From the IMG/VR virus record IMGVR_UViG_2548876941_000012: a DNA stretch of 32,850 nt; one strand, 5' to 3'. Under the pieces are notes generated by a model that was given only the letters and a program-made list of their open reading frames with translations, did no database searches and was not told the DNA's origin. The position numbers and the translations under genes were made by a program. How positions within the stretch are numbered: the stretch's first letter is position 1; each line of letters opens with the position of its first letter. The DNA comes from a virus. Its lineage: Duplodnaviria > Heunggongvirae > Uroviricota > Caudoviricetes. Below are positions 3,207 through 12,808 of the stretch, piece by piece.

Positions 3207-3422
3207 ATGGCGGTCAAGTTAGAAGTAATTATCTACACCGATGAAAATGGCACGCTTCGTGTCAGGAGTATGGGGGCTATTGATAAAAAAGGATTTACGG
3301 ATGAAGAGGTCGGTGTAAGACAACGGTTATGGGAGGTAATGAATCAAACTCTTAATAAAGAATTTAACGGCGTTGATTTATTTTCTGTTGGCGTGGAACC
3401 CTGCGCGCATAACACACATTAA
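3207..3422 (+). CDS. hypothetical early protein
   Basis: 71-aa ORF with good SD (AGAGGAAA) upstream of ATG; somewhat AT-richer than neighbours. Confidence 0.5.
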   Translation: MAVKLEVIIYTDENGTLRVRSMGAIDKKGFTDEEVGVRQRLWEVMNQTLNKEFNGVDLFSVGVEPCAHNTH

Positions 3423-3451
3423 TCTGTAAATATCACTGAGGTAATTTAATT

Positions 3452-4096
3452 ATGACGACTGAAAATAAAGTTAAGCAATACACGAAAACTCAAGCGCCTG
3501 AAGGTTACTGGGTGGATGCCCGTGGCGTAATGACACCTGAAAGCCTTATCAAAGATATTGACCGCGACCGCGAGCAGCTGGTCGGTGAGCTTGTGGAGAT
3601 GGTGATTGCTGCCTCCGCCTCACTGCGGGAACTGAAACTGCGTGCGTTTGGTGATATTCAGGCGTTTATTGACCTGTCGGCGGAGAAATACGGCGCTGTG
3701 AAAGGCGGTAAAAAAGGGAATATCACGCTTTACAGCTTTGACGGGCGTTACAAGATTCAGCGCGCCATGCAGGACCGTATCGCGTTTGATGAACGCATTC
3801 AGACCGCGAAGTCGCTGATTGATGATTGCCTGGCTGACTGGACGGAAGATGCACGCCCTGAAATTAAGGCCATCATCAGTGAGGCATTCAGCACGGACAA
3901 GGAAGGCAACATCAACACCGGTCGCGTTCTGGCCCTGCGTCGCCTCGAGATTGAGGACGAACGCTGGAATAACGCCATGTCGCTGATTGGTGAAGCCGTC
4001 CAGGTAATTGGCAGCAAAAGCTATATCCGCGTGTATGAGCGCGTCGGTGATTCTGCTGAATACCGCGCAATCCCGCTTGATATTGCAGGGGTTTAA
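3452..4096 (+). CDS. conserved Mu-like phage early protein (DUF3164-like, assignment from memory)
   Basis: 214-aa ORF, SD GAGG upstream. Family call is recollection only, not a search result. Confidence 0.6.
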   Translation: MTTENKVKQYTKTQAPEGYWVDARGVMTPESLIKDIDRDREQLVGELVEMVIAASASLRELKLRAFGDIQAFIDLSAEKYGAVKGGKKGNITLYSFDGRYKIQRAMQDRIAFDERIQTAKSLIDDCLADWTEDARPEIKAIISEAFSTDKEGNINTGRVLALRRLEIEDERWNNAMSLIGEAVQVIGSKSYIRVYERVGDSAEYRAIPLDIAGV

Positions 4097-4097
4097 C

Positions 4098-4331
4098 ATG
4101 CATCAGGATATCAAAGAGTACAGGGCTGGGAACCGTTGCGCAGCGTATTCGCTGGGCGCGTCCAGAGCAGAACAACGCGGCGATTATGCCGAAGCTGAAA
4201 AACTGTGGCGTAAGGCAGCACAAAGCCCGTGTAGTACCCTGCGCCGCATCTGGGCGGAACACCGGGCAGAGTTCTGTGCCAATGCTCACCTGAAAGGATG
4301 GAAGCCGCCTCATGAACGCGAAACGCTTTAA
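4098..4331 (+). CDS. small protein, possibly ANR-family-like
   Basis: ATG at 4098 two nt after the upstream stop; 77 aa with AAYSLGASRAEQRGDYAEAEKLWRKAA and RAEFCANAHLKGW segments. The track ORF 4008-4331 uses an upstream alternative start that overlaps the previous gene. Confidence 0.45.
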   Translation: MHQDIKEYRAGNRCAAYSLGASRAEQRGDYAEAEKLWRKAAQSPCSTLRRIWAEHRAEFCANAHLKGWKPPHERETL

Positions 4332-4503
4332 TCAGCTATATCCGCCAGGGACTCGCTTCATGCACATTGCACATCGGGCAGTGCGTGGTGGTCGGGTGGT
4401 AAAAACTGTTGCACCTGCCAGAGATTTTAAATGTGGTTGTGTGGTTGAAATTAATGTCGAGCCTTATTTCGTTAAAGTCGAAACACTGAAAGCACCGCAT
4501 TAA
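4312..4503 (+). CDS. hypothetical protein
   Basis: 63-aa ORF overlapping the upstream gene by 20 nt; last gene before an AT-rich gap containing a hairpin. Confidence 0.45.
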   Translation: MNAKRFNQLYPPGTRFMHIAHRAVRGGRVVKTVAPARDFKCGCVVEINVEPYFVKVETLKAPH

Positions 4504-4532
4504 TTTAATTTGTTTTTAATTGTTATTTAAAA

Positions 4533-4566
4533 CAGGCGTAAACCCGCAGGGGCTGGCTTACGCCTG
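4533..4566 (-). terminator. hairpin, probable terminator for the minus-strand gene 4644-4862
   Basis: 9-bp inverted repeat CAGGCGTAA / TTACGCCTG around a 16-nt loop. On the minus strand it is followed by TGTTTTAAAT; on the plus strand there is no U-tract. Confidence 0.4.
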
Positions 4567-4643
4567 AATCTGAGGAAGTTTATTTATGAATATTGCTAAG
4601 CAAAAAAAATTCGCCCGCGAAATTAATCTGACAATCGTTTGTT

Positions 4644-4862
4644 TTAATCGTCTTGCGACCAGTTCTCAATCGACAGCAGATGTTCATCCAGCGCCGCAGC
4701 CAGAACGAACTCCCCACGTTCCTGAAGGCCGTGCTGGAAGTTGCGTAATTCAGAATCCAGGGCGCTGAGGTTCAGACAGCCATTTTCTGAAAGCTGTTTA
4801 ACCAGAAAGCTCCACGCAGCTTTGTTAGCAGTAATTGCTGCCGCAATTTCATCATCAATCAT
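4644..4862 (-). CDS. reverse-oriented small acidic protein (72 aa), function unknown
   Basis: Only convincing minus-strand ORF in the window. SD AGGAG 5 nt upstream of ATG on the minus strand; enteric-like codon usage; net charge about -9 with acidic C-terminus ENWSQDD; downstream hairpin with U-tract. Confidence 0.5.
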   Translation of the reverse strand: MIDDEIAAAITANKAAWSFLVKQLSENGCLNLSALDSELRNFQHGLQERGEFVLAAALDEHLLSIENWSQDD

Positions 4863-4950
4863 TTTTTAACTCCTGATTGGGTATGTTGGGGCAGCGATTA
4901 TGACAAGTGTTTTGTGGTTATAAGTTGATCAAAAACAATGAGTTACAACC

Positions 4951-5661
4951 ATGAAAGATAAATACATTGCCAAAATCAAAAAACTGTTACGCCTTGCCAA
5001 AGGAACATCAAGCCCGGAAGAAGCCGCTAACGCTATTGCAAAAGCCCAGGCTTATATGCGCCAGCATGGTATCAGCGAAAACGACGCGGAATTGTTCGAC
5101 ATTCAGGAAGCTGCCAGCGCGGGTGCGCCGAGTGACGCCAGTACGCCGCCGCGTTATATGCACATCCTGTGTGACCTAGTCTGTAAAGCCTTCGGTGTCG
5201 AGTGTTACATCTCCGGCGAATACCGGGCTTCTGGTTCACTTAAACGTTACGTGCGTTTTTATGGTCCTGACAGCCGCCCGGAAATCGCGGCTTACGCGTT
5301 TGATGTGCTTTCCCGTCAGATGATGGCAGAGCGCAAGAAATATCAGGATAAACACTGCAAACGTTGTGGTCCGTCCACGCGGGTAGCCCGTGGCGACCAG
5401 TTCTGCGAAGGCTGGGTCTTTGGTGCCCGTGATGTCATTGCGGTGTATGACGTCTCCCCGGAAGAAAAAAGCCGCCTTGAGCTTTACAGAAAGAACCTGC
5501 ACAGCACTAAGGGACTGCGCGACGGGGATATGCGCACAGCTAAAGCGTGTCGGGGTGCAGAGTTTGCCGCTACTGCCGGTTTTATCGCCGGGAAGAACGC
5601 CAGGCTGCATCAGGGGGTTAATGGTCAGAGCAACAGACCGCTGGCACTGGGGAGGGTGTAA
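4951..5661 (+). CDS. DUF2786-like phage protein
   Basis: 236 aa. N-terminus KIKKLLRLAKGTSSPEEAANAIAKAQAYMRQHGI matches my memory of the DUF2786 N-terminal helix pair; Cys-containing C-terminal domain. Confidence 0.65.
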   Translation: MKDKYIAKIKKLLRLAKGTSSPEEAANAIAKAQAYMRQHGISENDAELFDIQEAASAGAPSDASTPPRYMHILCDLVCKAFGVECYISGEYRASGSLKRYVRFYGPDSRPEIAAYAFDVLSRQMMAERKKYQDKHCKRCGPSTRVARGDQFCEGWVFGARDVIAVYDVSPEEKSRLELYRKNLHSTKGLRDGDMRTAKACRGAEFAATAGFIAGKNARLHQGVNGQSNRPLALGRV

Positions 5662-5663
5662 CG

Positions 5664-5891
5664 ATGGCTTTTAAACTTCTTAGTGTTACCGAAGCAATAT
5701 ACCAGCCGCCCGGAGAACGCCACGAATACAGGATGAATGACGGTAGCGCGGTGGTTGAGTTCCCCGGATATCCGGGGGCTTCCCGGTGGCGGTTCTATGA
5801 CAGTGTGGGACGTCGGATTATTAAAAGAACCGTGCACAACAATATGAAGGCTGCCGTAGAACGTCATAAGAGAAGGTTTAACTGCAAATGA
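5664..5891 (+). CDS. hypothetical protein
   Basis: 75-aa ORF; SD GGAGGG upstream; starts 3 nt after the preceding stop. Confidence 0.5.
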   Translation: MAFKLLSVTEAIYQPPGERHEYRMNDGSAVVEFPGYPGASRWRFYDSVGRRIIKRTVHNNMKAAVERHKRRFNCK

Positions 5892-7663: not shown

Positions 7664-7680
7664 TTAAATAATAACCAATA

Positions 7681-7708
7681 GCAGACCAAAAAGTATTTTT
7701 TGGTCTGC
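7681..7708. promoter_or_regulatory. perfect 12-bp palindrome (GCAGACCAAAAA gtat TTTTTGGTCTGC) with adjacent TTTTGGTC repeat
   Basis: Read directly; lies in a 67-nt intergenic gap inside the early region. Stem contains its own A/T tract, so it could be a bidirectional terminator or a protein-binding site. Confidence 0.4.
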
Positions 7709-7730
7709 CAAAAGTGATGTTTTGGTCATT

Positions 7731-12067: not shown

Positions 12068-12808
12068 ATGCAAAAACAGATTATTGGTAACGCAACGTTG
12101 TATTGCGGTGATGTTCTTGATGTGCTGCCGGCGTTATCCGAACGTTTTGATGCCGTCATTACCGACCCGCCTTACAGCAGTGGTGGCACACATAAATCAG
12201 ACCGCAGCATGGCCCCTTCGGACAAGTATGTCGGTCACACCCAGTATGCCGAGTTCAGCGGGGATAACCGCGACCAGCGCAGTTGGGCATACTGGAGCAC
12301 CCTGTGGATGTCCGGGGCTGCCCGCCTTGTGCGCCCCGGTGGTTATGTCATGGTGTTCAGTGACTGGCGACAGCTTCCCACCATGACCGACGTTTTTCAG
12401 GCCGGTGGTGTGCTGTGGCGTGGTCTTGTTGTCTGGGATAAAACGCAGGCTTCCCGTGCGCCACACACCGGCTATTTCCGGCATCAGGCCGAGTATGTGG
12501 TCTGGGGCAGCAACGGAAAACTCGACAAATGTCCGCACGGTGGCCCGTTCCCGGGTGTGATTACGCAGCGTGTTGTCCCGTCCGAAAAACTGCACATGAC
12601 CGCAAAGCCGGTTCAGCTGATGGCCGAGCTGGTTAAACCGCTGGCACCGGATGCGCACGTTCTCGATCCGTTTATGGGAAGCGGCACCACCGCCATCCCG
12701 GTACTTGCCCGTGGCGGACGGTTTACCGGCATTGAAATGACTAACCAGTATTTTGATATCGCCTGCGCACGTATCGAAAAAGCGCAGGCAGAAGCAGCGC
12801 AGGTGTGA
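12068..12808 (+). CDS. DNA methyltransferase, beta-class (N6-adenine or N4-cytosine)
   Basis: 246 aa; catalytic motif IV DPPY near the N-terminus (AVITDPPYSSGG), SAM-binding motif I near the C-terminus (VLDPFMGSGTT); this motif order is the beta-class arrangement. No adjacent restriction gene. Confidence 0.85.
   Translation: MQKQIIGNATLYCGDVLDVLPALSERFDAVITDPPYSSGGTHKSDRSMAPSDKYVGHTQYAEFSGDNRDQRSWAYWSTLWMSGAARLVRPGGYVMVFSDWRQLPTMTDVFQAGGVLWRGLVVWDKTQASRAPHTGYFRHQAEYVVWGSNGKLDKCPHGGPFPGVITQRVVPSEKLHMTAKPVQLMAELVKPLAPDAHVLDPFMGSGTTAIPVLARGGRFTGIEMTNQYFDIACARIEKAQAEAAQV

Follow-up and report, generated by a model that had tools for sequence, protein, structure and literature searches.

A conserved, backward-facing small gene in the early region of a Mu-like prophage of Escherichia coli E2348/69

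The early operon of Mu-type phages is the textbook case of a long transcript that runs in one direction, and a gene that faces the other way within it raises the question of what it is, how long it has been there, how it could be expressed and what its product might do. Such a gene was found in the stretch of viral DNA that we analyzed (IMG/VR record IMGVR_UViG_2548876941_000012; 32,850 nucleotides, in the following referred to as the window), in which a gap of 447 nt at positions 4504-4950 contains a minus-strand open reading frame (ORF) of 72 codons, here called rev72. The initial annotation of the gap, made from the sequence alone, described a reverse-oriented gene for a small acidic protein with its own terminator, and considered it an acquired accessory gene that might specify a DNA mimic or an inhibitor of host defense. 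Our comparison of related loci leads to a partly different reading, which we hold at about even odds (a probability of roughly 0.5): rev72 would be an old, dispensable, moron-type leftward unit, whose product acts in the lysogen by binding another protein. The features of the gap and its borders on which the argument draws are the following (positions in the window).

4525-4566, minus strand: hairpin (4533-4566) with a UUUUAAAU tail (4525-4532), terminator-like only for leftward transcription
4573-4768, plus strand: rival ORF of 60 aa (ATG at 4586, ORF 4586-4768), with GAGGAAG 6 nt before the ATG, antisense to the 3' part of rev72
4644-4862, minus strand: rev72 coding sequence including the stop, ATG start, 72 aa, predicted acidic three-helix protein, WP_000564495.1
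4784-4952, no strand: segment of 169 bp that is deleted in most E. coli relatives, lying between CCAT at 4780-4783 and CCAT at 4949-4952 (from the alignment)
4870-4874, minus strand: Shine-Dalgarno (SD) sequence AGGAG, 7 nt before the rev72 ATG, read from the sequence
4897-4905, minus strand: candidate extended -10 element TGTCATAAT, the hexamer matching TATAAT at 5 of 6 positions, with no recognizable -35
4925-4932, no strand: palindrome TTGATCAA with a Dam GATC site, between rev72 and the DUF2786 gene
4951-5661, plus strand: DUF2786/DUF7168 gene, product of 236 aa

The minus-strand ORF is present as it had been described, with an ATG start, and coincides with a coding sequence (CDS) called by the Prokaryotic Genome Annotation Pipeline (PGAP) and labeled 'hypothetical protein' in PGAP and RefSeq. 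It is the sole minus-strand CDS in the window, all other PGAP CDSs being on the plus strand, and the product is indeed acidic (13 Asp/Glu versus 4 Lys/Arg, isoelectric point (pI) 4.28). The GC skew is zero or negative over positions 4600-4900 and amounts to +0.1 to +0.2 in the flanking plus-strand genes. By itself the ORF proves nothing, because an ATG ORF of 72 aa turns up in 6% of the shuffled versions of the 447-nt gap; as ORF length is uninformative, the case for rev72 rests on the comparison with relatives, and it is conservation that makes the feature real. An exhaustive phmmer search recovered full-length homologs at 94, 61, 40, 40 and 37% identity, each 72-77 aa long, and two further profile rounds yielded around 20 clusters within the same length range (72-77 aa) from E. 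coli, Salmonella enterica, several Serratia species, Trabulsiella and metagenomes. Residues A8, A9, I10, A12, N13, A16, W17, L20, L24 and A55 are invariant in the alignment of the family, which thus shares an N-terminal helix motif (AAAIxANxxAW..L...L) plus A55. Substitutions were counted according to Nei and Gojobori between pairs of homologous loci (given here with our own numbers, preceded by L), and the ratio of non-synonymous to synonymous rates (dN/dS) in the rev72 frame was 0.12 for L005/L011 (17 synonymous and 9 non-synonymous changes), 0.08 for L018/L019 and 0.13-0.16 for L018 or L019 against L021 (0.13 for L018/L021). The frame of the plus-strand ORF gave 4.1 for L005/L011 (2 synonymous and 23 non-synonymous changes) and 2.4-5 for other pairs. 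With values of 0.08-0.16 in the one frame versus 2.4-5 in the other, rev72 is almost certainly a genuine coding gene, and related Mu-like prophages, in which the initial annotation had proposed to look, retain it as coding sequence at the same junction, with truncated copies in many E. coli.

The same data bear on the opposite assignment, according to which the plus-strand ORF is the real gene and rev72 its shadow. That ORF does have GAGGAAG at a suitable place, 6 nt before its ATG, an SD sequence and ATG follow the hairpin in all rev72-bearing loci, and PGAP calls the ORF in variants with a truncated rev72 (WP_128497447.1 and WP_157839748.1). However, the substitutions in its frame are nearly all non-synonymous (hence the dN/dS of 2.4-5), searches of Pfam, PHROGs and NCBIfam gave no family match, and the ORF overlaps just the 3' portion of rev72, the most strongly conserved residues of which are at the N-terminus. 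The long plus-strand ORF of L018 is in another frame, and resampling of synonymous codons in rev72 reproduces the length of the plus-strand ORF in 5 of 6 loci. The dN/dS values, the frame in L018 and the resampled length largely refute the plus-strand ORF as a gene, and we regard this assignment as highly improbable. The minus-strand ORF is evidently the gene and the plus-strand ORF 4586-4768 an antisense shadow without a conserved protein; the PGAP calls of this shadow as a gene in the common truncated variant should be corrected. The SD-ATG behind the hairpin is the generic start signal of whichever plus-strand gene comes next, and ribosome loading at this point may serve to maintain translation of the early transcript where it crosses the backward gene (anti-polarity). 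In L018, an AGGA directly abuts the plus-strand ATG.

How long rev72 has been at its place can be read from the loci that carry it. All homologs in a Mu context occupy the same junction, opposite to the early genes and divergent from a DUF2786/DUF7168 gene, at identities of 33-64%. This holds for the window and for loci L004 and L031-L033 (Salmonella), L005 (a Serratia fonticola genome) and L006, L009, L011, L018 and L030 (like L007, metagenomic or read-assembled prophages). The gap between rev72 and the DUF2786/DUF7168 gene measures roughly 90-265 nt, and in L006/L007 it also holds a gene of 59 aa. On the other side of rev72 the neighbor varies: it is a 63-aa gene (PHROG 5591) in the window and, among the loci, this same gene, a gene of 188 aa or other small genes, while in the Salmonella loci L031-L033 further small genes stand beside rev72 with Gam beyond them. 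The GC content of 0.48 over rev72, compared with 0.52-0.58 in its neighbors, does not amount to the foreign composition expected of a recent arrival. Rev72 is therefore very probably an ancient, syntenic gene of this lineage.

Diverged homologs of the Serratia odorifera type (L019, L020, L021 and L026-L029) stand alone in chromosomal islands that are rich in insertion sequences and lack Mu genes, where they adjoin unrelated large proteins. In our reading of the alignment, L019 and L020 retain an apparent stub of the start of the DUF2786 gene, for which reason these copies look like rearranged prophage remnants. A tie between stand-alone rev72 and the large proteins encoded upstream was considered and dropped, as the proteins of 886 aa (L020) and 776 aa (L026) are unrelated to each other. 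A tblastn search with rev72 of 50,697 phage records, phage Fc02 included, gave no match, so that no isolated phage in this set encodes the protein; a megablast search with the region against the phage collection likewise had no match, and the same was true for scans of genome contigs with the rev72 profile and with the DUF2786 protein. The literature search on WP_000564495.1 and on the Mu-like prophage of E2348/69 also returned nothing. Judged by these comparisons, the rev72 family is undescribed and confined to Mu-like (transposable) prophages of Enterobacterales.

The distribution within E. coli shows that rev72 is dispensable. Out of 5,426 complete genomes examined, 59 records match the 447-nt interval, which is whole in only 8 of them (4 of these 8 being assemblies of the E2348/69 lineage); the intact copies that we sampled are identical in the gene. 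In 35 of the 59 records just the first 272-280 nt of the interval are matched (from query position 1 or 8), and in the other 16 just the hairpin end. The deletion of 169 bp between the CCAT microhomologies removes codons 1-26 of rev72 together with the SD sequence and the promoter region, keeps the ATG of the DUF2786 gene and places a new GAGG upstream of it. Two protein clusters (P0002 and P0003) carry C-terminal residues of rev72 behind an unrelated N-terminus, as expected of gene calls on such truncated copies. In E. coli 08-00022 (L022), the 63-aa gene, the hairpin and the DUF2786 gene follow each other directly in that order, the flanks of rev72 thus being adjacent as is demanded of a moron. 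In four other loci (L002, L023, L024 and L004), the site has taken up one unrelated plus-strand gene or two, with a copy of the hairpin and then an SD-ATG bordering each of them, and the site between the 63-aa gene and the DUF2786/DUF7168 gene is a recombination hot spot at which cassettes are exchanged. The description of rev72 as an acquired accessory gene is thereby borne out with respect to 'accessory', the gene being intact in 8 of 59 records, and is misleading where it suggests a recent acquisition, given the homologs at 33-64% identity in the same junction and orientation.

Several signals around rev72 point to a unit of its own. The AGGAG upstream of the ATG is indeed there, at a spacing of 7 nt and not of 5 nt as first stated, and a GGAG, GAGG or AGGA is found at an equal distance from the ATG in all homologous loci. 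Of 12 loci, 9 have a -10-like hexamer at a distance of 38-43 nt upstream of the ATG, with CATAAT, TAGAAT, GATAAT and AATAAT as variants, and in 5 it is preceded by a TGn extension (E. coli, Salmonella and L006). A T(T/C)GATCA core recurs around 24 nt upstream of the -10 box in six loci (the window, L004, L005, L011, L006 and L009). A role of TTGATCAA as a repeated activator site was rejected, as the single copy in the window is at chance level.

On the downstream side, the hairpin at 4533-4566 is present with a U tract on the minus strand only, as had been noticed, but the stem is longer than the 9 bp originally given: as minus-strand RNA it comprises 12+2 pairs (-22.9 kcal/mol) and runs into UUUUAAAU, the UUUU tail. 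Read as plus-strand RNA, it is weaker (-19.6 kcal/mol), as an A.C mismatch takes the place of a G.U pair, and the sequence behind it, AAUCUGAGG, has no U tract. Across lineages the hairpin is conserved nearly base for base, with an invariant outer stem (GGCGTAA/TTACGCC) and an invariant GGGG loop (CCCC on the minus strand). Two types of inner stem, differing by compensatory changes, can be discerned. Type A stands beside rev72 in every rev72 locus; it has 12 G.U pairs on the minus strand versus 2 on the plus strand, summed across 11 variants, and in 11 of 12 variants its minus-strand RNA is the more stable one, whereas for the type B hairpin it is the plus strand. The UUUU tail of the E. coli and Salmonella loci occurs only on the rev72 strand. 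Statistical support from covariation is weak since the stem is conserved mostly by identity: 7 of the 14 pairs are invariant and compensatory changes are limited to the two outer pairs. A search of Rfam with positions 4300-5100 returned only a sub-threshold match to Lnt RNA (26.9 bits, with the gathering score at 55). The hairpin of the E2348/69 prophage is predicted to have the features of a one-way leftward terminator. Together, the own SD sequence, the -10-like box that is conserved in position and the downstream hairpin make up the layout of a separate leftward unit that the initial annotation had proposed, and rev72 probably forms an independent leftward transcription unit.

For the protein, AlphaFold2 with the alignment of 16 family sequences predicted a three-helix bundle (mean predicted local distance difference test score (pLDDT) 88.4, predicted template modeling score (pTM) 0.72), and a run on the single rev72 sequence reached a pLDDT of 71.6. 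The product is predicted to be a small, cytoplasmic, acidic three-helix protein. The profile and structure searches that had been suggested for the 72-aa protein were uninformative: rev72 itself had no telling match in Pfam, PHROGs, NCBIfam, PADLOC, PDB or BFVD, and searches of Pfam, PHROGs, NCBIfam and PADLOC with rev72 and all 16 family members gave nothing or scattered sub-threshold noise (in PADLOC, 0 of the 16 members matched any model at E<=1). Rev72 hence defines a small-protein family for which Pfam, PHROGs and NCBIfam have no model. Within this family the net charge ranges from -9 to -2, with 3-6 Lys+Arg, 7-14 Asp+Glu and a pI of 4.2-5.9 (maximum 5.86), and the invariant columns (Ala, Ile, Asn13, Trp17 and Leu, mainly in helix 1) include no acidic residue. 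A variable acidity in combination with invariant positions that are small or hydrophobic would suit a helix face that binds protein, and not a DNA-like array of charges.

These properties bear on the proposal that rev72 is a recently acquired anti-defense gene, the small acidic product being a DNA mimic or an inhibitor of restriction or another defense. The size and the charge of the product itself (13 Asp/Glu against 4 Lys/Arg, pI 4.28) fit such a role, and so does the location, a variable site of the phage early region at which cassettes are gained and lost. Yet acidity is not a trait of the family, as the pI goes up to 5.86 and the invariant residues are hydrophobic or small; ArdA, Ocr or other anti-defense families were not matched in Pfam or PHROGs, PADLOC gave no match, and PDB and BFVD offered no structural neighbor. 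The presence at the same junction in several genera contradicts a recent acquisition, and a gene that opposes the early transcript would presumably not be co-expressed with the earliest genes on infection. We consider the proposal very unlikely.

The reading that we prefer combines the above into a simple scheme. A weak extended -10 promoter belonging to rev72 would drive its leftward transcription, apart from the repressor-controlled early promoter, and the protein would be made in the lysogen, like the repressor. Expression in the lysogen is suggested because the orientation of rev72 escapes the repressor-controlled early promoter and because its strand is shared with a repressor-like helix-turn-helix gene (PGAP annotation). 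The leftward transcript would stop at the conserved hairpin, through which early rightward transcription would read. The protein could then bind another protein via the invariant face of helix 1 and serve a function in the lysogenic phase, for instance superinfection exclusion or the damping of a phage early protein; DNA mimicry is not favored. That rev72 is a protein binder expressed in the lysogen is a tentative proposal argued from context and analogy, to which we would give somewhat less than even odds.

A number of observations weigh against this scheme. The predicted fold is a generic helical bundle without an informative structural neighbor in PDB or BFVD, and because of this generic fold the proposed function is drawn from context and analogy only. 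A -35 box could not be recognized upstream of rev72 across the compared loci, and a simple consensus scan of positions 4200-5200 found neither a sigma-70 promoter nor a terminator; the candidate promoter is below the 9 of 12 positions that the scan required, and its terminator rule made no provision for an interrupted stem. The Serratia-type and metagenomic loci have a poor U tract on the minus strand, as does the hairpin copy beside rev72 in STEC346. The close alleles of E. coli differ by 0 synonymous and 5 non-synonymous changes and thus give no sign of purifying selection over short range, and most E. coli copies of rev72 are dead. Finally, the hairpin follows the 63-aa gene without rev72 in Klebsiella phage ST405-OXA48phi1.1 and in Pseudomonas fluorescens phage VW-6B, and since it is present there without rev72 it did not evolve as the rev72 terminator.

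The hairpin, in other words, is an older, lineage-wide intergenic element and recombination joint that was not brought in by rev72. What had been called 'its own terminator' is correct to the extent that a hairpin with a minus-only U tract lies downstream of rev72, but this hairpin is only partly its own, as the same structure occurs in phages and prophages without the gene. An AT-rich stretch, the hairpin and an SD-ATG (4504-4585 in the window) form the joint that comes after the 63-aa gene throughout the lineage, from Pseudomonas fluorescens phage VW-6B and the Klebsiella phage to E. coli; other copies were located in L002, L004, L022, L023 and L024 and in two further loci.

2214-2243 of L034: copy of the joint
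2219-2248 of L035: copy of the joint

Candidates for the primary role of the joint are RNA processing or stability, a protein site and a linker for recombination.

Two other explanations place the function of rev72 in the early operon itself. The first makes it a dedicated partner of the neighboring DUF2786/DUF7168 protein, as an inhibitor, antidote or regulator. What suggests a partnership is that DUF2786/DUF7168 is the one constant neighbor, always divergent, while the gene on the other side varies. Most E. coli prophages, however, have an intact DUF2786 gene and a truncated or absent rev72, the Serratia odorifera-type copies occur without a DUF2786 gene, and DUF2786 proteins are far more widespread than rev72, for example in B3-like and Ralstonia phages. 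We therefore think such a partnership rather unlikely. A toxin-antitoxin-like pair of rev72 and DUF2786/DUF7168 was rejected as well, as the genes are divergent instead of co-directional and each is found without an intact copy of the other.

The second explanation has the unit work mainly through RNA or transcription, with a head-on leftward promoter that uses transcriptional interference or antisense RNA to gate or delay the passage of early transcription into DUF2786 and further to mor, the protein being secondary. All Mu-context loci keep the convergent arrangement upstream of the remaining early operon, GemA and Mor included; the -10 box is conserved, and leftward RNA would be antisense to the translated spacer ORF of the plus strand. 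But a pure RNA device does not require a protein that is under purifying selection across lineages and has a confidently predicted fold, and the unit has been deleted in most E. coli relatives with no other visible change in the operon, which makes this explanation improbable in our view. A more ambitious reading, in which rev72 and the head-on promoter are a conserved control module of this Mu-like branch, would have the protein neutralize DUF2786/DUF7168 or another early protein in the lysogen, or the leftward transcription gate read-through to mor. This is a long shot; if true, it would add an unrecognized layer of lysogeny maintenance or of early-to-middle timing in transposable phages.

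As to the surroundings, positions 3400-5700 are 100% identical to the chromosome of E. coli O127:H6 E2348/69, and the window is a Mu-like prophage of this strain, inserted in eutC. The MuA and MuB genes are followed by the early region, a Mor-family activator, lysis genes and head and tail genes.

1-2043: MuA-type transposase
2062-2955: MuB-type ATPase

Halves of eutC are found on both sides of the prophage, outside the window (L001 797-1234 and L025 24662-25135), and the split gene fits a Mu-type transposition into a host gene. An early-region gene at 4098-4331 (plus strand) matches NCBIfam NF033650, the ANR family transcriptional regulators, with 56.9 bits at a cut-off of 32; we take this to be the AraC-negative-regulator family, whose presence in a prophage of an enteropathogenic E. 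coli (EPEC) strain would be noteworthy. An inverted repeat at 7666-7723, between two early ORFs, has arms of 27 nt and a loop of 4 nt (GCAGACCAAAAA...TTTTTGGTCTGC) and looks like a bidirectional terminator-like hairpin within the early region. A DNA methyltransferase gene is located at 12068-12808 (plus strand), between the DUF1804 gene and the large terminase gene (PGAP). In L009, a related Mu-like prophage, the cargo at positions 1325-2183 consists of genes for a type VI secretion system Hcp protein and for a Tlde1-domain protein, flanked by the GemA gene on one side and by lysis genes on the other.

As it stands, rev72 is an ordinary hypothetical accessory gene, and its RefSeq annotation as a hypothetical protein is correct, even though the family itself is undescribed. 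Two points are mildly unusual: that it has been kept in a backward position, and that a hairpin found throughout the lineage delimits cassettes that can be exchanged. Prophages of E. coli, Salmonella and the Serratia type keep a backward gene at a fixed place of the early operon, and in this they depart, modestly but genuinely, from the one-directional scheme. If rev72 were an exclusion factor or a regulator of early genes, this would help to explain the interplay of Mu-like prophages of EPEC and Shiga toxin-producing E. coli (STEC) with other phages.

Of the known systems with which rev72 can be compared, the DNA mimics Ocr and ArdA are likewise acidic and encoded by mobile elements, but rev72 is much smaller, does not conserve its acidity, matches them neither in sequence nor in fold, and has the wrong orientation for immediate-early expression. 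Aqs1 is a helical protein of around 69 aa whose gene, reportedly, is part of the early region, is read on the early strand and is expressed upon infection; homology between rev72 and Aqs1 was not found in any search. Aqs1 of the Pseudomonas Mu-like phage DMS3 is described as a protein that inhibits type IV pilus function of the host and thereby blocks recognition by other phages (PMC13436744). Another comparison is with morons, which are independently transcribed accessory units in prophages (PMC3594210). Rev72 is a single small gene that has its own SD sequence, with a candidate promoter in front and a hairpin behind it; the two genes that it separates are neighbors in the related prophage L022, and it is dispensable and patchy within a hot spot of cassette swapping. 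Unlike a typical moron it is no recent add-on, as several genera share it in this position with identities of 33-64%; the hairpin predates the gene and is independent of it, and the base composition is only slightly below that of the neighbors. In terms of function, the closest precedent that we met is olg1/gene 10 of Pseudomonas phage Fc02, a B3-like transposable phage in which a protein of 7.9 kDa excludes superinfecting phages; its gene is on the strand of the repressor, runs antisense to an early gene and is transcribed in the lysogen (PMC9936078). The Fc02 genes are in the immunity region beside the repressor, whereas rev72 is in the middle of the early operon; the early gene opposite is functional in Fc02 and a shadow at rev72, and the tblastn search of the phage records, Fc02 among them, detected no sequence similarity. 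What the two have in common is a transposable phage, a protein of around 8 kDa, a coding strand opposite to the early operon and a position antisense to an early-strand ORF.

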